Positions 1 through 43,032 of a DNA stretch of 47,734 bases are shown piece by piece. Below the pieces are notes generated by a model that saw nothing but the letters and a program-made list of their open reading frames with translations, was not told where the DNA came from and searched no databases. Source of the DNA: a virus (taxonomy: Duplodnaviria; Caudoviricetes); IMG/VR virus record IMGVR_UViG_3300014208_001203, positions 1-47,734 of that record. One strand, 5' to 3'. Made by a program: the position numbers and the translations under genes. Every line of letters begins with the position of its first letter. Position 1 is the first letter of the stretch.

Positions 1-90
1 ATGTTGATACATTTCAAACTCTTCCTTTGTTCCATTATGCAACTTCGATTCTGCCATCGCTGCCGAAAATTTTTGTCCTGTATGTGTCAT
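1..90 (-). CDS. Hypothetical protein, N-terminal part (runs off window)
   Basis: ATG at 90, open to the window edge (MTHTGQKFSAAMAESKLH...); not in the ORF track. Confidence 0.5.
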   Translation of the reverse strand, partial: MTHTGQKFSAAMAESKLHNGTKEEFEMYQH

Positions 91-132
91 ATAATTTAAC
101 TACATTTATTTGTGACCGTTATAAACAATAAA

Positions 133-309
133 TTAAAATTGTTTACATTTTAGTCTTTTGCTAAGTTTCTTCGCCCATCGAGCAAAAGATTTTGCTTTTT
201 CTTCATCAATATTTTCTGGCTCTACCATATGTCCAGCAGTTGCTTTATTTGCTGCGTCAAACAATTTGTCAGCAAAATCTTTCACGTCTTTATCTGTAAA
301 GTTTTCCAT
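133..309 (-). CDS. Hypothetical cassette protein, 58 aa
   Basis: Hand translation MENFTDKDVKDFADKLFDAANK...KCKQF*; fills one cassette; promoter motif upstream at 374-400. Confidence 0.7.
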   Translation of the reverse strand: MENFTDKDVKDFADKLFDAANKATAGHMVEPENIDEEKAKSFARWAKKLSKRLKCKQF

Positions 310-326
310 AATTTTAATTTACATTT

Positions 327-448
327 TTATAACAACAAATATAAAACATTGCTGTCGTGGTTTCTATTTATATTATACGTTATTTTCTAAGTTTTGTTTC
401 ATTAATTTACTTCTGTGTTGCAACGTTTTATATTTGCAACCGTTATAT
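327..448. repeat. attC-like hairpin site 1
   Basis: TAAC-aa-CAAATATAAAACATTGC ... GCAACGTTTTATATTTG-caacc-GTTA (16/17 paired). Confidence 0.85.
374..400 (-). promoter_or_regulatory. AAC-N16-CGTA promoter motif inside the loop of site 1
   Basis: Minus strand GAAAC-N16-CGTATA, same as 13 other copies. Confidence 0.7.
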
Positions 449-533
449 GCAATGCTACGTTTCTGCTTCGTATTAAGTTTCATCGTAACATTCTTTTTAT
501 TTTATTTTTTCTCCCACCTCACAAATATAGTAA

Positions 534-1379
534 TTATATTTTGAATATTTTATTTATTTTAATATTATCATCATCAAATACAATAATTTCATCAGTAATA
601 CCATAACCAGTGTCAGCATCAACAATTATTACAGTATCAAATCCTTCATTATTTGCAGTTTCTAACCAGCCAACTCTATTCCAATTAGTTCCTATATTTT
701 CACCTTTTTCTGTTGTTGTATTACCAAGTTTTATATCACATTCGTAAATGTATGCAATTCCGTTATTATCTTTTAAAACAGAAGCATAATAATTAGCATA
801 TTTTAATTCTCTAAAAAAGAAAAAACCATTATCAGCACCAAGTTGTCCACTTGATTTATTTTCTCCATATCTAAATTGTTTAAATTTAAAAGAACTTGCA
901 TGATAACCTTTCATTGTTTTTTCATTTTTATTGAAATTTGGTTTTATATTATTTTTATTATCTTTATATAATTTTCTCGCTTCATCTTGAAGTTCTTTAG
1001 TATTATCCATTATAAATGTCCAATGATTACTACCATAATCTTTATCCGCAATTATCGTTTTATAATGTGCAAATGATGTAGTTCTATTTTTATAAACGGT
1101 ATTGTTATTATTATCTTTAACAATTCTACCAATAACAATTTCATCACCTTTATTTATTCTACCATAATCTTTAATTAAATTAATATCGTTTAAATAAACA
1201 TATTCTTCAACAAAATCATTTTCTTTCCATTTTCTTGCATTATCAATAAATGGTTGTAATTTAGATTTATCAAATTTATAGTTGTAATCAAAATCATTAT
1301 CTGAATTTTCCACTTGTTCATTCAAATATTCACGTATAGTAGTTGCTATAAATTTGCGTAGTTTCATATCTTTCTCCAT
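534..1379 (-). CDS. ADP-ribosyltransferase-fold-like (ART-PolyVal-like) protein with LRKFI..TIREYL leader
   Basis: YHAS..F..F, GFFFF...YA..Y, EGFDTVII, EIIVFD motifs resemble 12806..13375. Confidence 0.6.
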   Translation of the reverse strand: MEKDMKLRKFIATTIREYLNEQVENSDNDFDYNYKFDKSKLQPFIDNARKWKENDFVEEYVYLNDINLIKDYGRINKGDEIVIGRIVKDNNNNTVYKNRTTSFAHYKTIIADKDYGSNHWTFIMDNTKELQDEARKLYKDNKNNIKPNFNKNEKTMKGYHASSFKFKQFRYGENKSSGQLGADNGFFFFRELKYANYYASVLKDNNGIAYIYECDIKLGNTTTEKGENIGTNWNRVGWLETANNEGFDTVIIVDADTGYGITDEIIVFDDDNIKINKIFKI

Positions 1380-1487
1380 ATATTTTACTTTATATATAAA
1401 TATTCAAATTTTAAATTTCTTCCCACAAAAAATAAAACAAAAAGTTTCATCTCTCATATCAAAGTTTGTAGTATAAATCCGCACTGC

Positions 1488-1581
1488 ATATAACAAGGTG
1501 TATAAGAAAGTTTGCTATCAACGATAGTGGTAATTTGAAAGTTTATACAAGCAAACCTTCTCATACACCCAATCGTTAGGT
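1488..1581. repeat. attC-like hairpin site 2
   Basis: TAAC-aa-GGTGTATAAGAAAGTTTGCT ... AGCAAACCTTCTCATACACC-caatc-GTTA (18/20). Confidence 0.85.
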
Positions 1582-1591
1582 GCAATATTTT

Positions 1592-2371
1592 TTAATTTTT
1601 TTGCCACCCCACTTCGGTTTTTTCAAAACCGTTTGGAAAAAACTCGTTCATTGTTTTGCCACTTAACCACCATTGCATTGCAATCTCTCCGTTTCCATTC
1701 GTGGCACAAGTTAATTTCCATTGTGGATTTTTGCTCATTCCTTTTGTAATTGCTCGTTTAATCGCTTCATAATATTTTGGATAAAGTTCAAATTCTTTTT
1801 CTCTTGCACCTTTTCGGCTCACTAATGGGCAGCCAACGCAACCAAGTCTATTTGCTCCAGTTCCGTAATGTGGTGCAAGTTTTATTTGTTTTTCGGCAAT
1901 AAATGAATAAACATCTTTATCAGTCCAATCGTAAATTGGATAAACGTGTTGGCTTCCTTTTTGCCATTTTCTATTATCGCATTGCACGTAATCTCTATTT
2001 TGTCGGTTCTTGCTTTCAGAACTACGAACACCTTCAAACATAATTTTACCAACCGAAACGTATTCTTTCAAAAATTCACAGCAATAGCGATTTAATCTTG
2101 TTGGTAATCCTTTGCGTTCAACTAATTGATAAAATGTTTCTTTTGGTTGCATTATTACTGTGTGTGGGTAATTATCTCTAATGTGCTTTATTGTTCCAAT
2201 CGGGTCGATAGTTGTATTTGCATAAATTGAAGTATATTCGATGCCTGATTTTTGCAATAAATAATCAACTACGGCACTATCTTTACCTCCAGAATTACCT
2301 GCAAATAATGGTTTGTCGGTAGCGTTTGCAACCGTATGTATAAATTTTATTGCTTTTTCTTCTAAATTCAT
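1592..2371 (-). CDS. PAPS reductase-family (PP-loop) protein
   Basis: SGGKDS PP-loop, RYCC, GVRSSES, PIYDWT, RLGCVGCP; start moved to MNLEEKA at 2371. Confidence 0.85.
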   Translation of the reverse strand: MNLEEKAIKFIHTVANATDKPLFAGNSGGKDSAVVDYLLQKSGIEYTSIYANTTIDPIGTIKHIRDNYPHTVIMQPKETFYQLVERKGLPTRLNRYCCEFLKEYVSVGKIMFEGVRSSESKNRQNRDYVQCDNRKWQKGSQHVYPIYDWTDKDVYSFIAEKQIKLAPHYGTGANRLGCVGCPLVSRKGAREKEFELYPKYYEAIKRAITKGMSKNPQWKLTCATNGNGEIAMQWWLSGKTMNEFFPNGFEKTEVGWQKN

Positions 2372-2408
2372 TTTTATTTCCCTCCCTAAAAAATTAAAAA
2401 ATACAGAC

Positions 2409-2462
2409 ACCTAACAGCGTGTATGTTGCATTAAAACGACAACATACACGCAACCGTTAGCA
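2409..2462. repeat. attC-like hairpin site 3 (minimal)
   Basis: TAAC-a-GCGTGTATGTTG-cattaaaacga-CAACATACACGC-aacc-GTTA, perfect 12-bp arm. Confidence 0.9.
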
Positions 2463-2466
2463 AACA

Positions 2467-2682
2467 TTATTCAGTAACATTTAGAATAACTATATAATTG
2501 TCAATTGGTTTATCTGTGTTAAAATGATACCATTTATCATTCTTTCTCTCAACAGGTATTTCCCAATGTTCTATATTATTTAATCCTTTAACTAAATATC
2601 CTTTTAACATATAACGTTTGCTAACACCAGCTATATTTAATTGCTGGTTATCTGTGCTATTTAAGTTTTGTTCTTTGTTCAT
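2467..2682 (-). CDS. Hypothetical cassette protein starting inside hairpin site 4
   Basis: 71-aa ORF; QLNIAGVSKR is encoded by the arm and core of site 4. Confidence 0.7.
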   Translation of the reverse strand: MNKEQNLNSTDNQQLNIAGVSKRYMLKGYLVKGLNNIEHWEIPVERKNDKWYHFNTDKPIDNYIVILNVTE

Positions 2683-2749
2683 AATACATCTTAATTTGAT
2701 AGCTTAGTGTTTCAAAATCAGCAACTAAACATAGCTGTAAACGTTATGG
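2619..2749. repeat. attC-like hairpin site 4
   Basis: TAAC-ac-CAGCTATATTTAATTGCTGGTT ... AATCAGCAACTAAACATAGCTG-taaac-GTTA (19/22). Confidence 0.85.
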
Positions 2750-2968
2750 TCAATTGTAAAAAACCGCCTCCGTAGTCTTTACCCTTTGACCTTGAATTAA
2801 GGCATTTAATCCTATTTCATCAAATGTGGTATTCTCTGCAAATCCACTCGTGTCCATTTCTCCACTATCACACCAAATTGTAACTATCACACTTTTCGGT
2901 ATTGGATTTGTTTTAATAGGCAAAAATTTGTCTATATGTTCATTAATTTGTTCTGCTGTCCATTCCAT
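2750..2968 (-). CDS. Hypothetical cassette protein
   Basis: 72-aa ORF whose stop abuts the GTTA core. Confidence 0.65.
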   Translation of the reverse strand: MEWTAEQINEHIDKFLPIKTNPIPKSVIVTIWCDSGEMDTSGFAENTTFDEIGLNALIQGQRVKTTEAVFYN

Positions 2969-3030
2969 CGCTCAAAATATTTAATTATTACATTTTACCT
3001 CGTATCAATATTTGTGCGTAATTATCGCAC

Positions 3031-3076
3031 TGGTCATATACCTGTCCGTTATAGCACATTAAAACGATGCTATAAC
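3031..3076. repeat. Orphan right half-site followed by an empty cassette
   Basis: tgtcc-GTTATAGCA-cattaaaacga-TGCTATAAC; no matching left arm found upstream. Confidence 0.75.
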
Positions 3077-3318
3077 AGCAAATATATTTAATTTTAAAAA
3101 TTTGGAACTGTCACTACAATTGGATATTTCTTCGGTTTATTGGCTGAAAAAAATTTACTTTCAGTCATATATTTACCAATCCATTGTTTAGTTCTATCTT
3201 CAACAATTTCATTAAATGCTCTATATTTTAGAACATCAAGTAAATTTTCTTCTGTTATTTTAATTGCCCATTTCATAATAAAATTTTTAAAACTATAATA
3301 TATTTGCAACCGTTAGCA
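3070..3318. repeat. attC-like hairpin site 6 with a gene in its loop
   Basis: GCAAATATATTTAATTTTAAAAATTT (3078-3103) pairs with 3281-3307, then aacc-GTTA. Confidence 0.8.
3094..3276 (-). CDS. Hypothetical protein, 60 aa, between the arms of site 6
   Basis: MKWAIKITEENLLDV...; ATG at 3276. Confidence 0.6.
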   Translation of the reverse strand: MKWAIKITEENLLDVLKYRAFNEIVEDRTKQWIGKYMTESKFFSANKPKKYPIVVTVPNF

Positions 3319-3322
3319 TCAA

Positions 3323-3502
3323 TTACCACATAAAACTATTACATTTTTCACAGTACCGTTGTTTGCCAAATATACTTTTTTTACTATGTTCTTCTTGTGT
3401 GCAATGTGGTAACTGTTCGCTTCGCACACTAACATCAGATAACAACAATTTTTCAGTGCTATTATCAATGTTTTTTGTTAATTTTTTACTTTTGTTTTTC
3501 AT
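3323..3502 (-). CDS. Hypothetical 59-aa protein with CxxC, starting inside hairpin site 7
   Basis: Hand translation MKNKSKKLTKNIDNSTEKLLLSDVSVRSEQL...YCEKCNSFMW*. Confidence 0.6.
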   Translation of the reverse strand: MKNKSKKLTKNIDNSTEKLLLSDVSVRSEQLPHCTQEEHSKKSIFGKQRYCEKCNSFMW

Positions 3503-3544
3503 ATTAAAATTCGTTTAAACTGCTGTTATCTGTGACCGTTATAC
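3427..3544. repeat. attC-like hairpin site 7
   Basis: TAAC-at-CAGATAACAACAATTT ... AAACTGCTGTTATCTG-tgacc-GTTA (14/16). Confidence 0.8.
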
Positions 3545-3561
3545 ACAATTGCTTTTTATAT

Positions 3562-3588
3562 TATACGTAAATAATTAGATTTTGTTAC
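3562..3588 (-). promoter_or_regulatory. AAC-N16-CGTA promoter occupying an ORF-less cassette body
   Basis: GTAAC-N16-CGTATA between cores 3538 and 3605. Confidence 0.7.
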
Positions 3589-3598
3589 GAGCAAATGT

Positions 3599-4502
3599 GC
3601 ATAACAGCAAATATAACCAATGCTGTCAGTGCTTCGTAGCAAGATTTGCACAAGTTTTACCATAATTTTTATTTTTTTGCCCACGCACTTCAGTTTTTTC
3701 AAAACTGTTAAAGTTTACAATAAATGCGTCCAAAAGCTCAATGGAGAACCATGATAAAAAGTAGTTTCACATTCATTATTATATTTACCATTAATGGTTT
3801 TTGTTATTTCACCATCTTTGTATATTTCTACTTTAACAATATTTTCTACTGGAATATTTTTTAAACATATTTCACTATATCCACCATATTGTTCTTGTAT
3901 ACTTGACCATTCTAAGGGAGATAGTAGTGATAAATCGTCTTTTTTTATATATGTAAGCAACACATCCACTTCTTTTAAATTTGGCTCTTCACTAAAACCA
4001 CATCCGTTTAAAAACTCCTTAGTTAAATTTGTTAGTTCATGTTCTGAGTAATCTTCTTCATTCCACTCCCTTTTATATTGTTTCAAATCATCAATTATTT
4101 CATCTTTATATCCAGAAATCCAAATATCACCACCAAAATGTTTATTTACATTATCCAAACAAACATAAAACAAAACACCATTTTTTATTGGATGTCTGTA
4201 TGCATGTGCCGCTGATGTTTGCCCATTTGCATATGCACTTGCATATGATTTTGATATGGATAAATATACCAAATTTAAACCAAACCCAGTACTTCTTGAT
4301 ATATTTGGCTTAATTTTTAATTTGCCAAATTCTTCTCTAATTAATTTACGTATAAAATCTTCTTGTTTTGTAATCATAATATCCAGTTTTTTATATATAA
4401 ATATTAAAAAATTAAAAATCCACCCTAAAAAATAAAAATTATTAGTGTAGTGTTTCAATCAAACATTTGTGGTAGCACTGGTTATATTTACAACCGTTAT
4501 GT
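3599..4502. repeat. attC-like site 8 with an ~850-bp gene-containing loop
   Basis: GCAAATATAACCAATGCT (3607-3624) pairs with AGCACTGGTTATATTTAC (4474-4491), 16/18. Confidence 0.75.
3715..4377 (-). CDS. Hypothetical protein with FIRKLIREEF leader, possibly ART-like
   Basis: Start moved to MITKQ at 4377; VYLS...YA..YA and C-terminal FYHGSP. Confidence 0.65.
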   Translation of the reverse strand: MITKQEDFIRKLIREEFGKLKIKPNISRSTGFGLNLVYLSISKSYASAYANGQTSAAHAYRHPIKNGVLFYVCLDNVNKHFGGDIWISGYKDEIIDDLKQYKREWNEEDYSEHELTNLTKEFLNGCGFSEEPNLKEVDVLLTYIKKDDLSLLSPLEWSSIQEQYGGYSEICLKNIPVENIVKVEIYKDGEITKTINGKYNNECETTFYHGSPLSFWTHLL

Positions 4503-4506
4503 GGCA

Positions 4507-4704
4507 TTAAGCACCACGCAACTTTTCGCCTCTCATGTCATCACAATTTTTTCTACCCCACTCAAGCACTTCCTCGTATGCTTTTTTCATATTTGGTTTT
4601 GCTTCATCATACACTTCTGCATTTTGATAACATCTACTACTTAACCCACAGAATATACGATAAAGTCCTTCTGCTGTTTCCTTGTCAAATTTTAATTCTT
4701 CCAT
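4507..4704 (-). CDS. Hypothetical cassette protein, 65 aa
   Basis: MEELKFDKE...; fills the cassette between cores 4496 and 4724. Confidence 0.65.
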   Translation of the reverse strand: MEELKFDKETAEGLYRIFCGLSSRCYQNAEVYDEAKPNMKKAYEEVLEWGRKNCDDMRGEKLRGA

Positions 4705-4717
4705 AATAATTAACGCC

Positions 4718-4839
4718 ACATAACAACGTGTATAAAACATTGCCTTTCGTGGTCTTTTTTAAGTTTATACTAATTTTATAATTTTGTTCATTTTATTAAG
4801 TTCTGTGTTGGCAACGTTTCATACACGCAACCGTTATAC
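4718..4839. repeat. attC-like hairpin site 9 (last in array)
   Basis: TAAC-aa-CGTGTATAAAACATTGCC ... GGCAACGTTTCATACACG-caacc-GTTA (16/18); loop resembles site 1. Confidence 0.85.
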
Positions 4840-5943: not shown

Positions 5944-6387
5944 TCATCTACTTTCATTAATTTCTCTGTCTATTTCTTTAATTTTTAAACTCATTTTTTT
6001 GTCGAAAAGTTTTTTTCCTTTAGCCAGGGCTATTCCAAGCTTAATTAAACCTTTGTCATTAACAAATATTTTCGTAGGGACAATTGTAAAACCTTTTTCT
6101 TGTGTTTTGCTTTTTAGTTTTTTAATTTCTCTTTTAGTAAGAAGAAGTTTTCTATCTCTCTTTGGCTCATGCTGATCATAGCTTGAGTTTTTATATTCAG
6201 AAACGTGAATGTTTTTTACAAAAACCTCACCATCCTTAATATAACAATAAGCATCAGTAAAACTTACGGCCCCGTTCCTAATTGACTTCACTTCTGATCC
6301 AACCAGCGCTATTCCAGCCACAAATTCTTCTATAAAAAGAAATTCAAAGCTGGCCTTTTTATTCTTTATGCTAATATTATTTTTCAT
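5944..6387 (-). CDS. smpB: SsrA-binding protein SmpB
   Basis: NKKA, AGIALVGSEVKSIR, H.P.RDRKLLL.KREI, LAKGKKLFDK motifs. Confidence 0.95.
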   Translation of the reverse strand: MKNNISIKNKKASFEFLFIEEFVAGIALVGSEVKSIRNGAVSFTDAYCYIKDGEVFVKNIHVSEYKNSSYDQHEPKRDRKLLLTKREIKKLKSKTQEKGFTIVPTKIFVNDKGLIKLGIALAKGKKLFDKKMSLKIKEIDREINESR

Positions 6388-9590: not shown

Positions 9591-10661
9591 ATGGAGAAAA
9601 TCAGGAAAATAATAAAAGAAGAATTACATGCTATCTTAGAAATAGAAAAAATAACAAACGAATTGGCTCCTTATTGTATGAAAAGAATTAGTTCTGAGAA
9701 AAATTATGCAATTCAATATAAACAAAAAACAGCAGGAACTTCTTTTACTGTACAAGAATTAAATTTATCTCATAGTGCATTTGTTAATTTTTTGATTATT
9801 AATGTTGAATTTAAAAAGGAAGCCGACAATAAAGAAATAAACAAAGTTGGCGGAAGTTACATAGAAGAAAGTATTGACCAAGAAATTGTAAATGGAATTA
9901 TAAAATATAACGGAGAAATTAAATTAAAACTGTATAATTGGGATTACAACACCGATTTAACCCATCAAATAAAAAATGTTCTTGACCATGAGTTACATCA
10001 TTTTTTTGATGATATAATAACATTTAACAAGAAAAAAACTACAAAATTTTTAAATTCAGTCAATCGTATGACAATTGATATTTCCCAAAAGTTATTAGAA
10101 AAATATCCAGAATTAAAAGATTTTACAGAGATATTTTATTTAAATCTCTCAAAAGAAAGAAATGCAAGAATTCAAGCAGTAAATTTTGAGGCCAAAAAAT
10201 ACAAAGATCAGACATTGGATGTTATCATTGAAAAACTCGGTAAATTTGCACCATTTAAAGATTTCCAAAGAATGGATAAATTTGATGTAAATAAATTAAA
10301 TTACATTCCGATTGAAGATAGAAAAAAGTTTATAGAATTATTTAACATTTCTTTGAATTATAACAGAAAAAAATTTAATATATCAGCAGAAGAAATAAAC
10401 TATCCAAAAGAACCAGACAAGTTTTTTGGTTTTTGGAAAGAGCAATTTAAAAAAAATTCACAAAAATTGTTTAAAGACTCAATTTCTATTGCAAAAAAAA
10501 TGGCAAACTCTCCAATTAAAGAAAATTGGAATTATAAGTTTGATGATGATTTGAGTCTTAAGTCTATGGAAATTTTGTTTAATTATCATTACAGAAGCAC
10601 AAAAATGGAAATAAACAAGTCAAATGATGATAGAATAAAATATTATACTAAAGTTCTTTAA
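9591..10661 (+). CDS. HExxH putative zinc metallopeptidase, paralog 1
   Basis: HELHH plus downstream ERNAR; close to 14652..15707. Confidence 0.65.
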   Translation: MEKIRKIIKEELHAILEIEKITNELAPYCMKRISSEKNYAIQYKQKTAGTSFTVQELNLSHSAFVNFLIINVEFKKEADNKEINKVGGSYIEESIDQEIVNGIIKYNGEIKLKLYNWDYNTDLTHQIKNVLDHELHHFFDDIITFNKKKTTKFLNSVNRMTIDISQKLLEKYPELKDFTEIFYLNLSKERNARIQAVNFEAKKYKDQTLDVIIEKLGKFAPFKDFQRMDKFDVNKLNYIPIEDRKKFIELFNISLNYNRKKFNISAEEINYPKEPDKFFGFWKEQFKKNSQKLFKDSISIAKKMANSPIKENWNYKFDDDLSLKSMEILFNYHYRSTKMEINKSNDDRIKYYTKVL

Positions 10662-12805: not shown

Positions 12806-13375
12806 TTAAACTTTTTCACTTTTTATAATTTTTGTTTGATTATCATTAAAAACAACAATTTCTTCACCAGTGCCATATTCAATTATTATTGCATCATATC
12901 CTTCATTTTCTAAACACTTAGATATTTTAATAGCTCCAAACTTGTCAGATATAGAAAAAAAATCTATCATTCTTGTTTCTTCATTTTTCACATCTGAATA
13001 CCCAAAGTCTGCTCCTCCTTTAGTTAGGATATCAATGTATTTTTGTACTTCTGGGTTAATTAAATTCCTGTCAATTTTCCCGTTTTCTTGGTTCATTTTA
13101 TATTCTGAATATTTTTCATAATCTATTTTATACGGGTTTTTAACATCTAATTCTACAGTTAATATATATCCATCAGAACCGTTAGCATAAGTTTCTGCAA
13201 CTTTTTTATCTGTTGAGAAATATAAACCTCTACCAAAATCTCCAGCATTGTTTTGAGACCCAGATTTTTCTAATTTAAACTTATCGAATTTATGCGGAGT
13301 TCCATGATAAGCAATAATCTTCTTTTTGACACCAGCCAACTCTTGTAATCTGTTTTTGTAATTTTCAGTTATCAT
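12806..13375 (-). CDS. ADP-ribosyltransferase-fold (ART-PolyVal-like) protein
   Basis: YHGT..KFDKF, FGRGLYFST...A..YA, KNPY, GYDAII, EIVVF. Confidence 0.7.
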   Translation of the reverse strand: MITENYKNRLQELAGVKKKIIAYHGTPHKFDKFKLEKSGSQNNAGDFGRGLYFSTDKKVAETYANGSDGYILTVELDVKNPYKIDYEKYSEYKMNQENGKIDRNLINPEVQKYIDILTKGGADFGYSDVKNEETRMIDFFSISDKFGAIKISKCLENEGYDAIIIEYGTGEEIVVFNDNQTKIIKSEKV

Positions 13376-13404: not shown

Positions 13405-14514
13405 TTATATTACAAATTTAGAGTATTTTTTTATTTCATTTAGAAACTCATCTTCCATTTCTCCGTGATAATAATGTGTGTCTGGTCCATTATCATAAAT
13501 CATCACTGCGCATTTTATATTATAATAAATCTCGTCTAATAATTGTTCCATATAGCTTCTATATTTAGGATTGCCATATTCGGTCACAACTTCTTTGTCT
13601 GCAAATAAGTTTATAGCTTGAGAAACAATTTTATGCCTTGCTTCTAGACTCATTCTCTTTGCTCTACCAATCCAATAATTAAAGAAATCATCTGGATTAT
13701 CAATTATTTTTATAGAATTTACATTTCCTTCTTTTGAAAATTTTAAAAGATATTTGTTAAAATCATTAACAAAATCTTCTTTTATAAATTCATCCAAATT
13801 TAAAACCCAATGGGGTTTAAACTTTTGTACTTTTAAAAAATCTCTGAAAACAGATAACTTATTCAACTCTCTTAAAACTTCATCATGTGTCTTTGCATGA
13901 AAATTTAATTTAAGATTTTTGATTTGAACATATGCTTCATGCACTCTTGCATCCACTTCTTCAGGTAAACTTAAATAGAAAATATCCATAAACCTTTCAA
14001 ATTCATCTATTCCATCAAAAAATTCTAAATTTTTCATTTTATTTCTGGTATTGTATAAAGCTTTTGAATAATTATTTGAATCAATTGTTGTTATATGTTG
14101 AAATGAGTGAAATAATTCATGTGAAAAAACCTTTTTTATATCATTTTTTAAGTCTGTTTTATAATCCCAATTAATTATGTAAATTTCAAATTTTACAAAA
14201 TACCTAAATTCATTTCTAATAAAATCTTGTCTTAATTTTATTAACCTCCCTGAAACACGGTTTATTTTATTACTTTTTTCTTCATCTGGAATTATATCTA
14301 TTCTAATTTCCCATATTTTAGATATTTTTCTATCTTCATCAGACATTTTTTCATCTATACGCAAATTGTCTTCACTTCCTAATTTTTCTTTTTTTTGTTG
14401 AAATTTGTTTGTTAATATTTCCATTATTCTTCTCGAATACTTATCTGAAATATTATCCAGCGGAAGATAATGACCCAAAACTTCTCTAACTAATTTTCTG
14501 AATTTATTTTGCAT
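13405..14514 (-). CDS. HExxH putative zinc metallopeptidase, paralog 2
   Basis: NWDYKTDL..VFSHELFH, IFYLSLPEEVDAR. Confidence 0.65.
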   Translation of the reverse strand: MQNKFRKLVREVLGHYLPLDNISDKYSRRIMEILTNKFQQKKEKLGSEDNLRIDEKMSDEDRKISKIWEIRIDIIPDEEKSNKINRVSGRLIKLRQDFIRNEFRYFVKFEIYIINWDYKTDLKNDIKKVFSHELFHSFQHITTIDSNNYSKALYNTRNKMKNLEFFDGIDEFERFMDIFYLSLPEEVDARVHEAYVQIKNLKLNFHAKTHDEVLRELNKLSVFRDFLKVQKFKPHWVLNLDEFIKEDFVNDFNKYLLKFSKEGNVNSIKIIDNPDDFFNYWIGRAKRMSLEARHKIVSQAINLFADKEVVTEYGNPKYRSYMEQLLDEIYYNIKCAVMIYDNGPDTHYYHGEMEDEFLNEIKKYSKFVI

Positions 14515-14651
14515 GTGTGCTTTTAATGATAAATATTTTTAAATTATAATGACAATAATATACAAAAATTTTTCTCTAATGTCAATATCCTAAACAATAT
14601 TATTTAAATTATATTTTGTTTTTGTTATATTTATATAAACATCATTGGAAT

Positions 14652-15707
14652 ATGAATAAAATTAGAAAAATAATTCAAGAAAAAGTGCATGTTGTTCTTG
14701 AAATTAAAGAAATCGTAAAAAAACTTGCTCCATATTATATGAAAGAATTTTATAAAATGGTGCCCAATATAATTGAATATAAACAAAAAACATATTGGAC
14801 TACAATTCCTGTTTCTGAATTATATCTATCCAACAATGCTTTTGTAAATGAGCTAATGATTACAATATATTTCCACAAAGAATCAACTGAAAATGTCGAA
14901 AACATTGTTAGTGGTCAATTTTCTGAAGAAAGCATAGATCAAGAAATTGTTGATGGAATTGTTAAGTATAACGGTGCAATAAATTTAAGAATACACAATT
15001 GGGATTATAAAACAAACTTAGAAGAACATTTAAAAAGTGTGTTCTCTCATGAATTACATCATTTTTTTGATGATATTGTGACATTTAACAAAAAGAAAAC
15101 AACAAAAATTTTAAACTCTGTCAATAGAATGACATCAAATTTCTCTTTAGAATTATTAAATAAATATCCAACACTAAAAGATTTCACAGAAATATTCTAT
15201 TTAAATCTTCCAAAAGAAAGAAACGCAAGACTTACTCAGCTGTCTGTAGAGGCAGATAAATACAAAGGGAAACCAATAGATTTTGTAATAGAACAGCTTG
15301 GACACTTAACTGCATTTAAAGATTTCCAAAGAATGGATAAATTTGATGCTAATAACCTAAAAAACATTCCATATAATGACAGAAAGCAATTCATTGATTC
15401 TTTTAATCTATCTTTAAACTATTCTAAAAACACCATGAATATTTCCTCAGAAGATCAAAATTACCCCAAAGAACCAGATAAATTCTTTGAATTTTGGCAA
15501 AGACAATTTAACAAAAATGCAAAAGTGTTATTTAAAAAATCCATTAACATAGCAAAATTTTTAAGCAAAGAAAAAATTAATGAGAACCACATTAATTTAT
15601 TAGAAACAAAATTAAATTCTACTTCATTAGAAATACTTTTCAATTATGGTTTGGATAATATAGGCATAGAAAAGAATACACACTCTGACCGAATTAAATT
15701 TAAATAA
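14652..15707 (+). CDS. HExxH putative zinc metallopeptidase, paralog 3
   Basis: HELHHFFDDI, IFYLNLPKERNAR; start moved to MNKIRK. Confidence 0.65.
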   Translation: MNKIRKIIQEKVHVVLEIKEIVKKLAPYYMKEFYKMVPNIIEYKQKTYWTTIPVSELYLSNNAFVNELMITIYFHKESTENVENIVSGQFSEESIDQEIVDGIVKYNGAINLRIHNWDYKTNLEEHLKSVFSHELHHFFDDIVTFNKKKTTKILNSVNRMTSNFSLELLNKYPTLKDFTEIFYLNLPKERNARLTQLSVEADKYKGKPIDFVIEQLGHLTAFKDFQRMDKFDANNLKNIPYNDRKQFIDSFNLSLNYSKNTMNISSEDQNYPKEPDKFFEFWQRQFNKNAKVLFKKSINIAKFLSKEKINENHINLLETKLNSTSLEILFNYGLDNIGIEKNTHSDRIKFK

Positions 15708-32595: not shown

Positions 32596-33564
32596 TTATT
32601 TCGTTTTAATTTTCATCATTACATCTTCAAGATAGTGAACATATTCAAGAAACTTGGGAGTTCTTTTTATTGAAGAATTCCTTTTCATGGGCATATCAAT
32701 GTCTATGAAATCATAAATTTCTCCTGGATTAGATTTTAACACATAAATTTCATCTGCTAGATAAACTGCTTCAGATAAATCATGTGTGACAAGAATAAAA
32801 GTTGGATCTCCTGGTATTTTTGACCATATATCAATAAGCATATCTTGCATTTTCAATCTTGTGTTTACATCAAGTGCTCCAAATGGTTCGTCCAAAATTA
32901 GCATTTCATTGTTTGCAATTAAACTTCTTGCAATAGCAACTCTTTGAAGTTGCCCTCCACTCAATATTGGATATTGAGCAAATTTATGTTCATGACCTTC
33001 CAGGTTAACAATTTTTATCATCTCCATGGCCTGTTCTTCTCTTTCGGATTTTGAAACACCTCTTAACTCAAGCGGTAAAGCAACATTTTCAAGGACAGTA
33101 GCCCATGGTAAAGATGAATATTGTTGAAAAACCATACCAACCCTATGTTTGTTTGTATGTGGTTTTCCATCAATAAAAATCTCTCCAGACGTTGGATTTT
33201 GCAACCCTGCAATATATCTGAGTATTGTTGATTTTCCGCAACCACTTGCTCCAACTATAACAGTAAATTGCCCCCCACCTTTTATGTCTTTAACTTTAAG
33301 ATTGAAATTGTCAAAAATTACATTCTTTTGACCATTTTTATCTTTGTAAATTTGTGAAATGTTTTTTAATTCCAGCTTATCAATTGGTTCATATTTTCCT
33401 TCCCTGAAGTTAATTTTGTTTTTTTCTTCAGAAACAATTTTTATCACTGGGTCTTTTGAATTGTTTTCCACTGACACAACAGTTTCAAGTTGTTCTTTTT
33501 CTCCATCCTTTAAGATTTCTGAAAAAACCCCAACTTCCTTTTTTTCTTCGAAATATCCAGCCAT
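32596..33564 (-). CDS. ABC transporter ATP-binding protein (NitT/TauT type)
   Basis: GASGCGKST, LSGGQLQR, LILDEPFGALD, VTHD. Confidence 0.93.
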   Translation of the reverse strand: MAGYFEEKKEVGVFSEILKDGEKEQLETVVSVENNSKDPVIKIVSEEKNKINFREGKYEPIDKLELKNISQIYKDKNGQKNVIFDNFNLKVKDIKGGGQFTVIVGASGCGKSTILRYIAGLQNPTSGEIFIDGKPHTNKHRVGMVFQQYSSLPWATVLENVALPLELRGVSKSEREEQAMEMIKIVNLEGHEHKFAQYPILSGGQLQRVAIARSLIANNEMLILDEPFGALDVNTRLKMQDMLIDIWSKIPGDPTFILVTHDLSEAVYLADEIYVLKSNPGEIYDFIDIDMPMKRNSSIKRTPKFLEYVHYLEDVMMKIKTK

Positions 33565-33565
33565 G

Positions 33566-34363
33566 TTAAACGTGTTTAAATTTAAATAATTTTTTATCTA
33601 GCCATTTAAATAATATATCTTGCAAAAAACCTATTATTATTATAATAAGAATTATTGCAAAAATCTTATCTAAACGACTTTGTTTTGCAGAAGTATAAAT
33701 CATGGCTCCTACGCCACCTTCATTATTCACCATTTCGGCTACAATTATATAAGTCCATGAAATTGCAGTGATAACTCTAATGTCAGCAGAAAGCTTTGAA
33801 ATAACGGATGGCCAATATATTTTTGTAAAAGTTTGCCAACTATTTGCGCCCAACGTGAAGATTGTATCAAGATGAATTTTTTCAGTTTCATATACTCTCT
33901 GTACAACTATAGGAAGCAAATAAACTATAATACCAAATGCAAGAAAGTTTATTTTCATTCCAGAAGAAATTCCGAACCATGCTATAAAAACTCCAACTAG
34001 ACCAGTGAGTGGCACATATCTTAATGCATCAATATATTTACTAAACATACTTCTCAAAAAAGGAATCAATGCAATTAAGAATCCTATTGGGATGGAAAAA
34101 ATTATAGCTTTCACATAACCAGCAATATTCAATTTTAAAGAATATACAATGTTTGACATTAGGTTGTCTTTTTGAAAAAGCTCAACAAAAGATACCAAAA
34201 CACTTCCTGGACTTGGAATTGTTTGAGGTTTCACCAATCCTGTTCCAGTGGTTATTAAAAACCAAACAAACAGCAAAAAGAAAAAACCAGCAATTCCAAC
34301 AATCAACGAAAGATTTTCAGATATATTTCCACCTAATTTAAAAAGAGACTTAAAAGTTTTCAT
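33566..34363 (-). CDS. ABC transporter permease (NitT/TauT type)
   Basis: PSP, multiple TMs, TLGA, SWTYIIVAEM. Confidence 0.88.
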   Translation of the reverse strand: MKTFKSLFKLGGNISENLSLIVGIAGFFFLLFVWFLITTGTGLVKPQTIPSPGSVLVSFVELFQKDNLMSNIVYSLKLNIAGYVKAIIFSIPIGFLIALIPFLRSMFSKYIDALRYVPLTGLVGVFIAWFGISSGMKINFLAFGIIVYLLPIVVQRVYETEKIHLDTIFTLGANSWQTFTKIYWPSVISKLSADIRVITAISWTYIIVAEMVNNEGGVGAMIYTSAKQSRLDKIFAIILIIIIIGFLQDILFKWLDKKLFKFKHV

Positions 34364-34399
34364 TTTTGTTAATTTAATTATTTCCGTTTGTTTTCATAT

Positions 34400-34426
34400 T
34401 ATACGTGTGTTTTTTAAAAATGTTAC
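34400..34426 (-). promoter_or_regulatory. AAC-N16-CGTA promoter motif
   Basis: GTAAC-N16-CGTATA. Confidence 0.75.
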
Positions 34427-34494
34427 TTTTTTATTAATATTTTTATTGATTTATTATTAGATTTTTACTATATTTAAAACAAAACATATATATT

Positions 34495-34632
34495 ATGAAA
34501 CCTAAAAAAATTAGCATATCACTTAATCCAGATGTTATCAAATTTCTCGATAAAGGAAAATATAATAAATCTAAACTAATAGATTCGCTGTTAGAAAAAT
34601 ATTTTAAAAATAATTCAGAAAAAAGTAAGTAA
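34495..34632 (+). CDS. Small ribbon-helix-helix-like protein
   Basis: MKPKKISISLNPDVI...KYNKSKLIDSLLEKYF. Confidence 0.65.
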   Translation: MKPKKISISLNPDVIKFLDKGKYNKSKLIDSLLEKYFKNNSEKSK

Positions 34633-34685
34633 AATCCTACTTTTTTATTTTTTCCATATATTTATAGATATAAAAAATAAATATT

Positions 34686-34847
34686 ATGGGAAGAAAATCA
34701 AAAACAACAGAAGAAAAGAAAGGTAAAATATCTATTACTATTTCTGAAAAATACTACAATCAAATGATTGAAGGTGACATAAACAAATCACAACTAATTA
34801 ATTGGTTACTTGAACAATACTTTAATCTCGTTAGAAATGGAAAGTAA
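34686..34847 (+). CDS. Small ribbon-helix-helix-like protein (MGRK type)
   Basis: MGRKSKTTEEKKGKISITIS...NKSQLINWLLEQYF. Confidence 0.65.
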   Translation: MGRKSKTTEEKKGKISITISEKYYNQMIEGDINKSQLINWLLEQYFNLVRNGK

Positions 34848-35454
34848 AGTGTGTACTATTTGTGGAAAAGAAAAACCATTAGATGAATTTTATAATAAAG
34901 AAAAAGGTAAAAAGCGTTCTGAATGTAAAATTTGTACTTATAAAAAACATAAAAATTTTAACGAGTTAAATAAAAATAGAGTTAAAAAACAAAGGAAAAA
35001 ATCTTATGATAAAAATAGAGATTCATTATTAAAAAACAAAAGAGAATCTTATAAGAAAAATAGTGAAAAATTTATTAAAAGGCAATGGGAATATACAAAA
35101 AAAAAGAAATTGGTCGATCCGATTTTTAAATTCAAACGTGATGTTAGAAACATGATTGCTAAATCATTGCGTAGTAGAAATTATACAAAAAAATCAAAAA
35201 GTTTTGTAATCCTCGGATGTTCTTTCGAAGAATTTATCTCTCATATTGAATCTAATTTTCAACCTTGGATGAATTGGAATAATCGTGGAAATCCTGAAGA
35301 TGGTATATTTGAATTAAATAAGACGTGGGATATTGATCACATTGAACCTCTTGCTAATGCTAAAACTGAAGATGATATAATTAAATTAAATCATTATACC
35401 AATCTTCAGCCATTATGCAGCTATGTTAATAGATTTATAAAAAAAGATAAATAA
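34837..35454 (+). CDS. HNH-family endonuclease with Zn finger
   Basis: KVCTICG...ECKIC; WDIDHIEP...HYTNLQPLC...N. Confidence 0.85.
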   Translation: MESKVCTICGKEKPLDEFYNKEKGKKRSECKICTYKKHKNFNELNKNRVKKQRKKSYDKNRDSLLKNKRESYKKNSEKFIKRQWEYTKKKKLVDPIFKFKRDVRNMIAKSLRSRNYTKKSKSFVILGCSFEEFISHIESNFQPWMNWNNRGNPEDGIFELNKTWDIDHIEPLANAKTEDDIIKLNHYTNLQPLCSYVNRFIKKDK

Positions 35455-35485
35455 AAAACGGCATTAAAATCGAATGCCGTTTTTT
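35453..35485. terminator. Bidirectional intrinsic terminator
   Basis: AAAAAACGGCATT-N7-AATGCCGTTTTTT. Confidence 0.85.
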
Positions 35486-35492
35486 ATTTCAA

Positions 35493-37010
35493 TTAGTCTT
35501 TTATTAATTCAAAATCAGTTGTCCTAAATTTTTCGTCATCACCTACTGACCCAGAATCAATAGCGTGTTTAGAGCCATTTCCTTTAACAATTATTCTGTT
35601 TTTGTCGAAATTAAATTGTTCTATTAGATAATCAGCCACTGATTGAGCTCTATTATAAGAAAGCTTTTCGTTAAATTCTTTTTTCCCCAAATTATCCGTA
35701 TTTCCTTCAATACGAATCCTGGCACCAGCATTAGTTTTTGCAATTTCTACAAATTCTCTGTTAATTTTAGCTTTTGATTCACCTGTTAGAGAATATGAGC
35801 CAGTGGGAAAATTAATTGTAATTTTCTTTGTAGAATAAGCTTTTTTATCTTTAACTTCGTCAGTAACTGGGGTAAATTTCTTTGTTACTTCTGCCAATTG
35901 TCCGTTTCCAGCAAGAGTGGAGCTTTTAATAAGAACGGCATCTGAAACATCACGCCACATTAATGGATTTTCAACCATTTTAATTTTTTGGTATTCTCCA
36001 GACATTGAAGTGTAAAGTAAATCTCCAGTTACACTATTTGCATCGCCTAGACCAAAGAAATTCTTATTATCTCCATGAGTTGTATATCTAACATTCTCCA
36101 TAGCAGCCAAAGCATCTGTTTGACTCATTTGAAATTTATCAGCCAGGATTTTTGCAGCCTTATCTCTTGCACCATCTTTGTTTGCATTAAGCTCTGCCGC
36201 ACCTGTCATCCAACCATCATAAAGTTTTTGTAATTTTTCAAGATTGTTTTTTACATATTCTTCTTTTGCAATAAAACCATCGGCTATAATAAATGTAGCT
36301 TCTTTTGTGCTTGCCAAAACTTTTGCGCCAGATACTTTTTTAACACAATCTATATCATCTGGAGACCAAACAACTGCTGCAACAACAACACCTTGTTTAA
36401 AGTTTGTAGCTGCATCAATGGCATTAGGTACAGGTTTAACCTCAATATCTGTTAAAGTCATATTATTTGCCTTTAATAGATTAATTAAGAACGAGTGACT
36501 TGGAGTTCCCTCAGCAACAGCAACAGATTTTCCTCTTAAATCAGAAATTTTTTCTACTGACAAATCTGCTACTATAGCATCTCCTCCACGACTCCAGTCT
36601 GCCTGGAATAAAAATTTAGGATTTGTCATTGCCATAGTTCCTTGTCTTCCCATTTCTGTTGAAAAAGCATCTGCTGTACACCATAAAAGATCTACTTCTC
36701 CAGCTTCAAACGCTTTTCTAGATGCGACAAAATCATCAAGAATTTTAAAATCTACCTGAATACCATATTCTTTGTAAAAACGGCATTCCATGTTGGGCTC
36801 AAAACCACCATTCATATACTGACCTCCAGCATATCCTGGCCATGTAACCACGCCCACTTTAATTACACCACCGCTTGCTGTTTTTCCAGCAAAAGAATTA
36901 ATGTTGTCTTGGAAAGAAAAATACAGAATTCCAAGAACCACTGCAACTAAGCCAGCAATAACCATTTTGCCTCTTGTTGTTAAACCACCTGTTTTTGTTG
37001 TTGTACTCAT
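35493..37010 (-). CDS. ABC substrate-binding (SsuA/THI5-like) protein fused to an OmpA-like domain
   Basis: VTWPGY, DWSRGGDAIV, DLRGKSVAV; IEGNTDN.G...N.KLS..RAQSVADYL. Confidence 0.88.
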   Translation of the reverse strand: MSTTTKTGGLTTRGKMVIAGLVAVVLGILYFSFQDNINSFAGKTASGGVIKVGVVTWPGYAGGQYMNGGFEPNMECRFYKEYGIQVDFKILDDFVASRKAFEAGEVDLLWCTADAFSTEMGRQGTMAMTNPKFLFQADWSRGGDAIVADLSVEKISDLRGKSVAVAEGTPSHSFLINLLKANNMTLTDIEVKPVPNAIDAATNFKQGVVVAAVVWSPDDIDCVKKVSGAKVLASTKEATFIIADGFIAKEEYVKNNLEKLQKLYDGWMTGAAELNANKDGARDKAAKILADKFQMSQTDALAAMENVRYTTHGDNKNFFGLGDANSVTGDLLYTSMSGEYQKIKMVENPLMWRDVSDAVLIKSSTLAGNGQLAEVTKKFTPVTDEVKDKKAYSTKKITINFPTGSYSLTGESKAKINREFVEIAKTNAGARIRIEGNTDNLGKKEFNEKLSYNRAQSVADYLIEQFNFDKNRIIVKGNGSKHAIDSGSVGDDEKFRTTDFELIKD

Positions 37011-41022: not shown

Positions 41023-41343
41023 TCAAGTAAATTCATAGACATCATTGTCGTTTATAATTTTTGTTGTAAATGGAAAATCGTCTTCTGGAACTTTTTTTAT
41101 AGTTTCCATTAGTAATTTAGCAATGGAAAAAGCAACATATTTCTTATCATCAACACTAATTTGTAACCACAAACAATTATCACTTCCTTTTTCAGGATAT
41201 TTAGAAGGTTTAATGTGATAGGCATGAATTGTTATTTCAGTGTTTAAAATCTTTGCAAGTCTTATTTTTTCTCCTACAAATTTTGTAGATGTTGATTTTA
41301 TTCCTAAATCTGAAAATTTTTTAATTATTTTTTGTTGTTGCAT
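41023..41343 (-). CDS. DGR-associated hypothetical protein (candidate accessory factor)
   Basis: 106 aa, overlaps the RT stop; predicted beta-rich, unlike helical Avd. Confidence 0.65.
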   Translation of the reverse strand: MQQQKIIKKFSDLGIKSTSTKFVGEKIRLAKILNTEITIHAYHIKPSKYPEKGSDNCLWLQISVDDKKYVAFSIAKLLMETIKKVPEDDFPFTTKIINDNDVYEFT

Positions 41344-42289
41344 TTAATAGTTTATTAGTTAAATTTATACAATCTCCGTGCTTTAACCATCCAATATATG
41401 ATGCTACAGAAGTTTTGTTTTGTTTGTTTTTTAACATATATACAAAATTTTTTTTTATTCTTTTTCTAATTTTTACATGAGTGTGAAAAAATACATATCC
41501 TAAAAAATCAACACCTCTCGATTGTACTGGGTATATTTGATAATTTTTCTTAAGGCGTAATTTTAAATTATCAAATAAATATTTTTTTATATCTAACAAT
41601 AGTAAATGAAGAAATTTCTTATTACCAGAAAAAAACACCATATCATCAGCATATCTAAAATAATATTTAACATTTTTTACTTCTTTAATCCAATGATCAA
41701 AATAACTCAAATAAAAATTTGAAAAATATTGAGATAAATAATTTCCTATTGGCAAACCAATAGCACTATCAATAATTTCATCAAGTAAAAGCAACAACTC
41801 TTTATCTTTAAATTTTCGTCTTAAAAGAATTTTTAGAGTTTTGTTATCTATGTTTGGATAAAATTTCTCGATATCAATTTTAAGACAATAAACAGTTTCA
41901 CTTTCATCTCGTAAAGACTCTTTTATTTTTTTAACTGCTGAATGAATTCCTCTTCCTTTTATAGAACTATATGTATCAGCAGTAAACGTAGATATAAATA
42001 TTGGTTTTAACACATTCATAACAGCATGATGTAATATCCTGTCAGGAAAATATGGTAATCTATAAACTATTCTTTCTTTTGGTTCAAAAATTTTAAATGT
42101 TATATAATTTGATGTTTTATATGTTTTACCTTTTAATTGACAATGTAAAATTCTTATGTTTTCCAATCTATTCTCATCATGTTTTTTAACACATGGTTGT
42201 TTTAACTTTCCTTTGCGTGCATTTTTGTCTGCTAATTCTAAATTTTCAACACTTATTATTTTTTGGTACAAATTGCCAATCCTTTTCAT
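41321..42289 (-). CDS. DGR reverse transcriptase
   Basis: MKRIGNLY, FEPKER, PDRILHHA, GLPIGNYLSQ (DGR-type SQ), RYADD, VDFLGY. Confidence 0.95.
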   Translation of the reverse strand: MKRIGNLYQKIISVENLELADKNARKGKLKQPCVKKHDENRLENIRILHCQLKGKTYKTSNYITFKIFEPKERIVYRLPYFPDRILHHAVMNVLKPIFISTFTADTYSSIKGRGIHSAVKKIKESLRDESETVYCLKIDIEKFYPNIDNKTLKILLRRKFKDKELLLLLDEIIDSAIGLPIGNYLSQYFSNFYLSYFDHWIKEVKNVKYYFRYADDMVFFSGNKKFLHLLLLDIKKYLFDNLKLRLKKNYQIYPVQSRGVDFLGYVFFHTHVKIRKRIKKNFVYMLKNKQNKTSVASYIGWLKHGDCINLTNKLLNATTKNN

Positions 42290-42400
42290 TATATGCCTTT
42301 GCTTAAAAAGTCATCTTCTTATTAAATACCAATGCCTTTTATTTAAAATTTATTTTTTACCATCTTGGTAAGGTTCATGCTGATTAAAGATTTTAATTTT

Positions 42401-42491
42401 GCATAGATGAGAAGTGGAAGTCGCATTCGCATTCGAATTATTGTAATTCGTATTGTTGAAAACGAAACCCGAACCCGCAGAGAACACCACC
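42401..42491 (-). repeat. DGR template repeat (TR)
   Basis: Non-coding, AAY-rich (would read VVFSAGSGFVFNNTNYNNSNANATSTSHLC); 20 adenines. Confidence 0.95.
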
Positions 42492-42513
42492 GCTTTTCAG
42501 CATACAACCAATT

Positions 42514-43002
42514 TTATTTTAGATCAATCAATTCATTTTCTATATCAATAAATTTTTCGCAAGCATCTTTGGCAAACTCTGCATTTTTAAAGCAAAGGCG
42601 AGAAGCGGAAGCCGCAAGCGCAATCGAAGAATTGTAACGCGCATTGACGAAAACGAAACCCGAACCCGCAGAGAACACCACCACTGGATAATAACGATTT
42701 TCTCCAATTTTTGGCAACCAACCTTCATTATAAACTTTTGCAATTCTCATTTTTTTAATAAAAGCTTTTATAACTTTTATTTCCTCTTTTCCAAATCCTG
42801 GAACTTTAACGACCAGAGAGTCGTCATCACAATCTACTCCAAGAGCATCACAGATATCTTCATAATTTTGTATTTTATCTGTTATCTTTTTTGGAACAAA
42901 AAACTCTTTTCCGAAATTTTCTTCAAGCATTTCTTTAAATTCTTGTGCAGCTGTCGGATATAACCTCAACGCCGCTTCTTCGCTCATTTTTAATGTTTTC
43001 AT
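42514..43002 (-). CDS. DGR target protein 1
   Basis: Contains VR1, ending ...ASRLCF. Confidence 0.9.
   Translation of the reverse strand: MKTLKMSEEAALRLYPTAAQEFKEMLEENFGKEFFVPKKITDKIQNYEDICDALGVDCDDDSLVVKVPGFGKEEIKVIKAFIKKMRIAKVYNEGWLPKIGENRYYPVVVFSAGSGFVFVNARYNSSIALAASASRLCFKNAEFAKDACEKFIDIENELIDLK
42592..42682 (-). repeat. Variable repeat VR1
   Basis: 91-nt ungapped match to TR; 14 of 15 mismatches at TR adenines. Confidence 0.95.
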
Positions 43003-43032
43003 TTTTTTATTGTTGATTTAAAAATTAATTTG

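Follow-up and report, generated by a model that had tools for sequence, protein, structure and literature searches.

Integron attC sites are described as non-coding elements of 57-141 bp, and the genesis of the cassettes to which they belong as largely unknown (PMC5371416); the loops of natural class 1 sites measure 3-100 nt (PMC7439510). Arrays of attC-like sites are also reported from lytic phages, including a Polaribacter phage, as clusters of attC sites lacking integron-integrases (CALINs), with methyltransferase cargo in some cases and with some genomes free of a recombinase (Qi et al. 2023, PMC9892861). Here, we describe an integron-like cassette array at the left end of a viral contig (Duplodnaviria; Caudoviricetes), IMG/VR record IMGVR_UViG_3300014208_001203, which was analysed over its whole length of 47,734 nt (hereafter, the window). 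Two sites of this array, sites 6 and 8, are hairpins that hold a whole gene inside the loop.

Elements of the IS1111 type insert in attC sites. Group IIC-attC introns likewise resemble the present case in that foreign DNA lies within an attC site (PMC3001079). The inserts described here differ from such elements: they are ordinary phage genes (methyltransferase, nucleotidyltransferase and unknowns) and not self-mobile, no transposase or reverse transcriptase of their own being found by Pfam among 21 loop proteins; moreover, both arms are intact and complementary and the filled site appears to move with its cassette. Engineered attC sites placed in coding sequence indicate that the stem can be coding, as in the straddling genes described below; those sites are synthetic, have loops of 3-21 nt and, in the accessible part of the report, contain no whole gene in the loop (Nivina et al. 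2020, PMC7439510). The phage CALINs share with the array and its relatives both the methyltransferase cargo (here in locus L257) and the occurrence without a recombinase (here in genome G001), whereas a gene inside the site, a long loop, and a phage Xer-like recombinase with an attI site are not described in the accessible text of PMC9892861. We found no description of whole genes inside attC loops in the literature, judged by titles and the starts of abstracts and with few subscription papers covered.

The array shares with integrons the RYYYAAC ... GTTRRRY boxes, an AAC box complementary to its own GTT box, hairpin arms, a bottom-strand bias and an asymmetric spacer (the right one 2-4 nt longer, all registers counted). 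Its cassettes likewise consist of a body and the following site, with a probable crossover at G|TT, and in relatives an attI-like site, located at the 5' end of a gene for a tyrosine recombinase, marks the start of the array. Unlike the attC sites of class 1 and Vibrio chromosomal integrons, its sites reach about 900 nt and hold whole genes, and in their best register the arms of 338 of the 351 sites (21 of the 23 gene-in-loop sites) are free of bulges over the first 14 bp, whereas integron attC sites have extrahelical bases in or next to the L box; the genes lie on the bottom strand, and not, as integron cassette genes do, on the top strand with transcription from a Pc promoter near attI; the recombinase is without the family-specific insertion of IntI, and a clamped carrier is common to both cargo slots. 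The IntI insertion is reported to be essential for integron function (PMC8138268). The system works like an integron and is not a classical one, differing in site length, extrahelical bases and the IntI insertion.

Whole genes inside the hairpin loops of sites 6 and 8

The array and the parts of its two gene-bearing sites are as follows:

1..4839, + strand: integron-like cassette array, with sites of the form TAAC-arm...arm-GTT on + and every cassette gene on -
3048..3076, + strand: empty hairpin body of cassette 6, 29 nt, whose own GTT pairs 7/7 with the AAC box
3070..3318, + strand: site 6, with AAC box 3070-3076 and GTT box 3312-3318; AAC-to-GTT distance 235 nt
3078-3102 and 3282-3307: left and right arms of site 6
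3094..3276, - strand: 60-aa gene in the site-6 loop, with a stop codon that lies in the inner end of the left arm
3538..3605, + strand: empty body of cassette 8, 68 nt, with self-complementary ends
3599..3624, + strand: AAC box (3599-3605) and left arm (3607-3624) of site 8
3625..3688, + strand: left half of the carrier, with half of an ordinary-type loop, inner inverted repeat 3662-3677 and C-rich motif 3679-3688
3715..4377, - strand: 220-aa gene in the site-8 loop
4394..4473, + strand: right half of the carrier, with C-rich motif 4419-4426, inner inverted repeat 4427-4442 and half of an ordinary-type loop
4394-4403, + strand: TATATAAATA, a possible phage late promoter element
4474..4502, + strand: right arm (4474-4491) and GTT box (4496-4502) of site 8, where neighbours switch at G|TT between alleles

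An earlier note on this DNA had claimed that the arms of site 6 enclose a 60-aa open reading frame (ORF) and that those of site 8, about 850 bp apart, enclose one of 220 aa. Both claims were borne out. In site 6, 24 of the 25 left-arm bases are complementary to the right arm, which has one extra base at arm position 12. The arms of site 8 are 849 nt apart and 16/18 complementary, both mismatches being A.C on the + strand and G.T on the - strand, and further inward 4427-4442 pairs 16/16 with 3662-3677. The AAC box matches its own GTT box at 7/7 positions in site 6 and 6/7 in site 8, for box-to-box lengths of 249 and 904 bp. Both enclosed ORFs are real genes, for which 21 and 3 homologue clusters were found, the ORFs themselves counted.

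To score the arms, we paired them over 16 bp with every TAAC found within 1500 nt upstream and kept the best score. Site 6 scored 13 and site 8 scored 14, values reached by 3/618 and 1/618 off-array GTT candidates, respectively, which argues that the long-range arms are not due to chance. When the DNA was folded as a single strand, both long stems were present in the minimum-energy and centroid structures, and for the two long sites folding exceeded that of shuffled sequences (z -3.5, 0/200; z -2.1, 0/20). All together, these results confirm that sites 6 and 8 are hairpins with a whole gene inside the loop.

Neither loop protein has a Pfam or PHROG match, and among the 21 loop proteins Pfam matched only a nucleotidyltransferase, a DNA methylase and, weakly, DUF4240. 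A structural model of the site-8 protein (pLDDT 78) gave no Foldseek match below E 0.001; its weak matches, over 40-46 residues, were to ADP-ribosyltransferase folds (E 0.9-2.5). The protein has an invariant YHGSP motif at its C-terminus and a YxS...YA motif near the N-terminus, an order that we presume could reflect a circularly permuted ADP-ribosyltransferase-like fold. By eye, several other carrier cargoes and the product of ORF 12806-13375 (ART-PolyVal) look similar.

Alleles, neighbours and the cassette unit

The left arm of site 8 was searched in viral contigs and the right arm in metagenomes (26 loci) and genomes (6 loci), and L001, L002 and L127 were added. A broader right-arm scan was examined for 120 of about 140 stretches, 80 of them with full flank. 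Nineteen of 35 rows were resolved, with an AAC-GTT distance of 470-896 nt in all of them, and yielded 16 distinct complete alleles including that of the window. At least 11 different cargoes remained after similar ones were merged among the 15 alleles whose proteins were compared. The other 16 rows comprised seven that looked chance-like by eye, three with too little flank and six half-sites (four distinct).

The AAC box pairs 7/7 with its own upstream GTT box in 75/117 sites and with the downstream GTT in 14/117; a cassette is thus a body plus the site that follows it. The unit at window 3538-4496 (958 nt, an empty body and a gene-filled hairpin) is about 93% identical to locus L165 throughout; the alignment ends at C|GTTA on both sides, and both neighbours differ. 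Similarly, identity between L150 and L172 extends as far as G|TT, beyond which the two are unrelated, and 17 alleles have 16 different right neighbours. As judged from these alignments, the whole unit appears to switch neighbours at G|TT at both ends, and mobility through the long-loop site is well supported. For ordinary sites, linkage between site and body was uninformative, since only four pairs at 85-87% identity were found, unlinked on both sides.

The earlier note had suggested a comparison of the same arm pairs, filled and empty, in related genomes. Many filled alleles of site 8 were found and no empty one. The left-arm scan of viral contigs for empty alleles returned three matches, all long; a scan for an empty inner hairpin (1-30-nt loop) gave a single low-complexity match; a local regex search gave no true empty allele; and a scan with the left half of the carrier gave the known site of G001 plus one chance match. 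Insertion of genes into an empty hairpin receives no support from these empty-hairpin, regex and carrier-half scans. For site 6, filled and empty forms were found at the level of the arm family: outer arms of its type flank four empty sites of 40 nt, a further site of 107 nt and a 215-nt site that holds a 50-aa ORF. Only the outer arm is in common, so these sites are members of the family and not alleles.

We pooled both samples into 355 distinct sites, or 351 after rows judged false were dropped. Five labelled long calls, in L002/L181 (452 nt), L246 (897 nt), L254 (950 nt) and L196 (311 nt), were rejected as false; arms of different sites can cross-match, which was the source of the 311-nt call in L196 and the 452-nt call in L002. 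An ORF of at least 45 aa lies inside the site in 23 of the 351. The 22 gene-in-loop sites with a called body form seven arm groups, and their body is no longer than 80 nt in 21/22 cases, against 13/308 among other sites. In the recombinase-anchored sample, the three arm types that were new (L227, L206 and L257) have 29-nt bodies throughout. L206 has two consecutive long-loop cassettes (298- and 211-nt loops), each with an empty body of 28-29 nt.

Genes were also found to straddle the left arm, starting in the loop and running through the arm into the body, at 78/126 sites of 95-135 nt and at 10/14 sites of 136-400 nt. Together with the gene-in-loop sites, these show that the left arm may be ahead of the gene, inside it or behind it. 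The AAC-GTT distances of ordinary sites form discrete size classes of about 40, 70-82 and 103-122 nt, the largest of which holds gene starts. A short loop motif, CATTAAAACG, closes both the 40-nt empty sites and the 29-nt empty bodies (window 2412-2456, 3048-3076, 3060), and both empty slots use this one minimal hairpin loop. The gene-in-loop cassette is a real, conserved and repeatedly arisen layout, a variant of integron-like systems.

A clamped carrier in both cargo slots

Inward from the arms of site 8 there follow, in order, a half-loop, a perfect inverted repeat of 16 bp and, on the side of the gene, C-rich motifs. The two half-loops together resemble one ordinary loop of 103-118 nt (15/50 at z >3). 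The inner repeat occurs as five sequence types in the 16 alleles, and each copy matches its own partner perfectly over 13-17 bp and partners of other types over 5-10 bp; twelve of the 16 share one type, which leaves about four independent changes. This second inverted repeat, which clamps the loop gene and whose two sides change together, is a new element. The same architecture surrounds body genes in L006, L154, L155 and the window (442-1494), and a methyltransferase gene within unrelated outer arms in L257, so that the carrier is common to both slots.

The remaining features of the window's array, body 442-1494 among them, are as follows:

1..90, - strand: ORF with an open end at the contig edge, starting left of a right arm at 95-113, with GTT at 118
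442..1494, + strand: body of a body-type carrier cassette, with complementary ends and C-rich motifs at 513 and 1422
493-510 and 1427-1444: inner inverted repeat of body 442..1494
534-1379, - strand: 281-aa gene in body 442..1494
1575..2415, + strand: body with terminal inverted repeat 1586-1601 / 2388-2403 and C-rich motifs
1592-2371, - strand: PAPS-reductase-family gene in body 1575..2415
2743..3054, + strand: half-site unit, the right half of a loop-type carrier with GTT at 3048, without a left arm
2750-2968, - strand: 72-aa gene of the half-site unit
3323..3502, - strand: 59-aa ORF in the straddling state, starting in the loop of ordinary site 7 and crossing its left arm into the body
3427-3544: ordinary site 7

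The position of ORF 1..90 to the left of a right arm, also pointed out in the earlier note, is as described there; its left arm would lie beyond the contig, and the ORF is compatible both with a whole gene in the loop and with a straddling gene.

One cargo family occurs in both slots: the loop cargo of L170/L176 has a homologue (40-45%) in L202, where it lies in a body, at the left end, which is of the carrier type. Two homologues of the site-8 protein, P0004 and P0006, bear the leader that marks body carriers in 5/5 loci (one judged by eye), and in L158 a body-type left end is joined to a loop-type right end. The same leader precedes different protein bodies, and a leader of about 20 N-terminal residues stands before the right arm of the loop in nine loci; a search of viral contigs for close relatives of the two loop proteins of the window gave leader-only matches for one and none for the other. 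Four homologues of the site-8 cargo (47-59%) are free-standing, outside arrays, in other large phages. A 51-aa loop cargo has a 67% homologue just outside the array of phage G001 (L227 1934-2086 and L021 18053-18178). Finally, one cassette, L151, fills both slots, the body with a gene of 219 aa and the loop with one of 125 aa. The proposal that both body and loop accept cargo is thus supported by the many genes found within the same arms, by the carrier in both slots, by L170/L176 compared with L202 and by L151; the straddling gene, as a third common state, qualifies the two-slot picture.

Recombination platform, folding and rival explanations

Relatives of the array carry a recombinase. A 285-aa tyrosine recombinase lies at the array head in G002 and G003. 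Among the best 80 of 217 viral recombinase relatives, which were kept, 42/49 loci with at least 3 kb upstream of the gene have at least two sites there, and 0/71 have them downstream. An A/T-rich conserved attI-like motif ends in GTT, after which the sequence diverges, and the box of the first cassette pairs 7/7 with this GTT in 20 of the 28 cases listed. Gene-in-loop cassettes stand first behind attI in L231 (51-nt body, 244-nt loop, 69-aa ORF ending in the left arm; arm score 12.5) and in L254 (107-nt body, 276-nt loop, gene inside), the latter found outside the attI-motif script. The cassette genes and the recombinase gene share one orientation, that of the bottom strand. The L004 recombinase scores 156 bits against TIGR02249 (cut-off 265), and its best match, NF040815, is also below cut-off; it has 22 residues where 2a3v has 73, and the IntI insertion is lacking. 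In L197, the first cassette behind the attI-like site (from about + 9985 leftwards) has a 29-nt empty body and a 180-nt loop whose bottom strand looks tRNA-like at both ends, possibly an RNA cargo; ARAGORN called no tRNA in this loop.

The window itself is a linear record, 13% complete, with a G+C content of 23-37%, and its array is truncated by the left contig end, where relatives carry attI and the recombinase. Its genes include DNA ligase, RecD2, SmpB (5944-6387, phage-borne) and a homing endonuclease. Both loop proteins are also recorded on a contig of 455,767 nt, so the window is likely a fragment of a jumbo phage; one relative, L176, sits in a Bacteroidetes bin, a weak hint at the host. 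Elsewhere in the window, a likely diversity-generating retroelement (41023-43488) combines a reverse transcriptase (41321-42289) and a neighbour of 106 aa with a 141-nt repeat at 42371-42511, which recurs in two genes, at 42562-42702 and 43075-43215. Host-type genes at 32596-37010 include, by eye, an ABC-transporter-like set with an OmpA-like fusion, and three paralogous genes of 356-369 aa and no known family alternate in orientation (9591-10661, 13405-14514, 14616-15707).

Mismatches in the arms are mostly A.C on the top strand, that is G.T on the bottom (12/16 in gene-in-loop arms, 423/521 in others), a bias by which the mismatches favour the bottom strand. As circles of the bottom strand, cassettes 6 and 8 form their AAC/GTT pairs with probabilities of 0.98-0.99 and their arms with 0.98; five of six short-loop cassettes fold alike, the exception being cassette 7 (0.04). 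Arm pairing at the long sites persists in the linear array (0.97-0.98). All these folding probabilities are equilibrium values, which ignore kinetics and bound proteins.

We propose an inside-out cassette design for sites 6 and 8 of this integron-like phage array, each cassette being likely to move as one unit at G|TT. Each consists of a short, empty body followed by an attC-like hairpin with a whole gene in its loop; the Xer-like tyrosine recombinase of the array, with the folded bottom strand as its substrate, would likely excise and insert the unit at G|TT. Once the cassette is excised as a single-stranded circle, its recombination stem would form a dumbbell with the body and the hairpin loop as its two loops, either of which could be long, the short one nucleating the fold and the inner repeat clamping the long one. 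Exchange of cargo would likely proceed through homologous recombination, for which carrier flanks and leader codons offer shared sequence, and not through insertion into an empty loop. Loop length is reported to cost little when attC arrives single-stranded (PMC8946536).

Several findings weigh against this proposal. Under replicative conditions, long loops are reported to lower recombination by up to 4 logs (PMC8946536). In the linear array, the AAC/GTT pairing needed for excision has a probability of 0.01 at site 8, 0.27 at site 6 and 0.00-0.26 at short sites, because AAC pairs with the GTT of its own body; the predicted two-loop dumbbell thus readily accounts for insertion of a circle, whereas equilibrium folding does not account for excision, for which the fold would have to be selected by the recombinase or by replication. 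No tyrosine recombinase is encoded on the window's contig, 13% complete as it is. The complete genome G001 (362 kb) has arrays with three long loops (205, 253 and 484 nt) and no recombinase match. None of the 19 resolved rows is a short-loop allele of site 8. Half-sites L152/166/168, L156, L158 and L173 have a right half without a left arm within 1288-1517 nt, and the window's own half-site at 3048 joins these four; together they show that such sites decay. The whole-flank duplex energy ranked the own partner first in only 4/16 alleles. As for body length, 15 of the 22 cassettes come from one arm family, so that the count is not independent and its P value carries no weight; a short body is also simply expected from one gene per cassette, and the 740-nt coding body of L151 shows that it is not required. 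Lastly, the bottom strand is also the sense strand of the mRNA, and the wobble bias therefore cannot separate DNA from RNA.

Some of these points would fit use of the right-end G|TT without a long-range fold, either as a one-sided secondary target or by homologous recombination within the short arm and core that sites share, the long-loop units being passengers or targets and the left arm a leftover. Arrays do retain half-sites beside new right neighbours, the recombinogenic form is unfavourable in the linear fold, G001 carries arrays without a recombinase, and integrase insertion outside att sites has been described (10.1101/2022.09.11.507474). We nevertheless consider such an explanation unlikely: complementarity of the left arm and of the inner repeat is maintained throughout the 16 alleles and five repeat types, gene-in-loop cassettes stand first behind attI with 7/7 box pairing, as expected if a circle inserts through its own site, and both ends of one unit switch at G|TT. 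Somewhat less probable still is a selection of the long-range pairing in mRNA, as a processing or stability stem around each gene, with recombination through short sites only. The genes lie on the strand favoured by the wobble bias, and through the inner repeat the 5' untranslated flank of a gene pairs with the 3' one, in the loop slot as in the body slot; yet the exchange at G|TT at both ends, the attI-like site and the recombinase beside 42/49 upstream regions would be left unexplained, and no Rfam family was matched in the window. An RNA role may hold for the inner repeat alone.

The earlier note had itself raised the concern that the arm matches could be chance or deletion scars, for example of two neighbouring sites that each lost the inner half and whose like arms now pair. 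Arms of different sites do cross-match, as in the dropped calls of L196 and L002, and cassettes fused by loss of an attC site are known (PMC4670013). The off-array rate of 3/618, the enclosure of at least 11 cargoes by one arm pair, always at long range, the resemblance of the two loop halves to one ordinary loop and the joint change of the inner repeat on both sides speak against it, and make this explanation very improbable; a scar origin may apply to the first ancestor of the site-8 family.

If natural, gene-bearing sites of 250-900 bp move at G|TT, as proposed here, the length limit of attC would be removed, and such arrays would be overlooked or wrongly split by attC detectors. Structure-specific recombination would have a simpler tool in a recombinase that lacks the IntI insertion and acts on bulge-free hairpins. 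The carrier common to both slots, holding genes that are free-standing elsewhere, provides a concrete and testable route for cassette genesis. Tentatively, and with doubt, the clamped carrier could be a cassette-making device that captures ordinary phage genes between its flanks, in which a recombinase without the IntI insertion reads the dumbbell and the carrier sits at either end of the stem. Were this true, phages would build cassettes de novo from their own genes, and the length of the attC loop would be practically unlimited.
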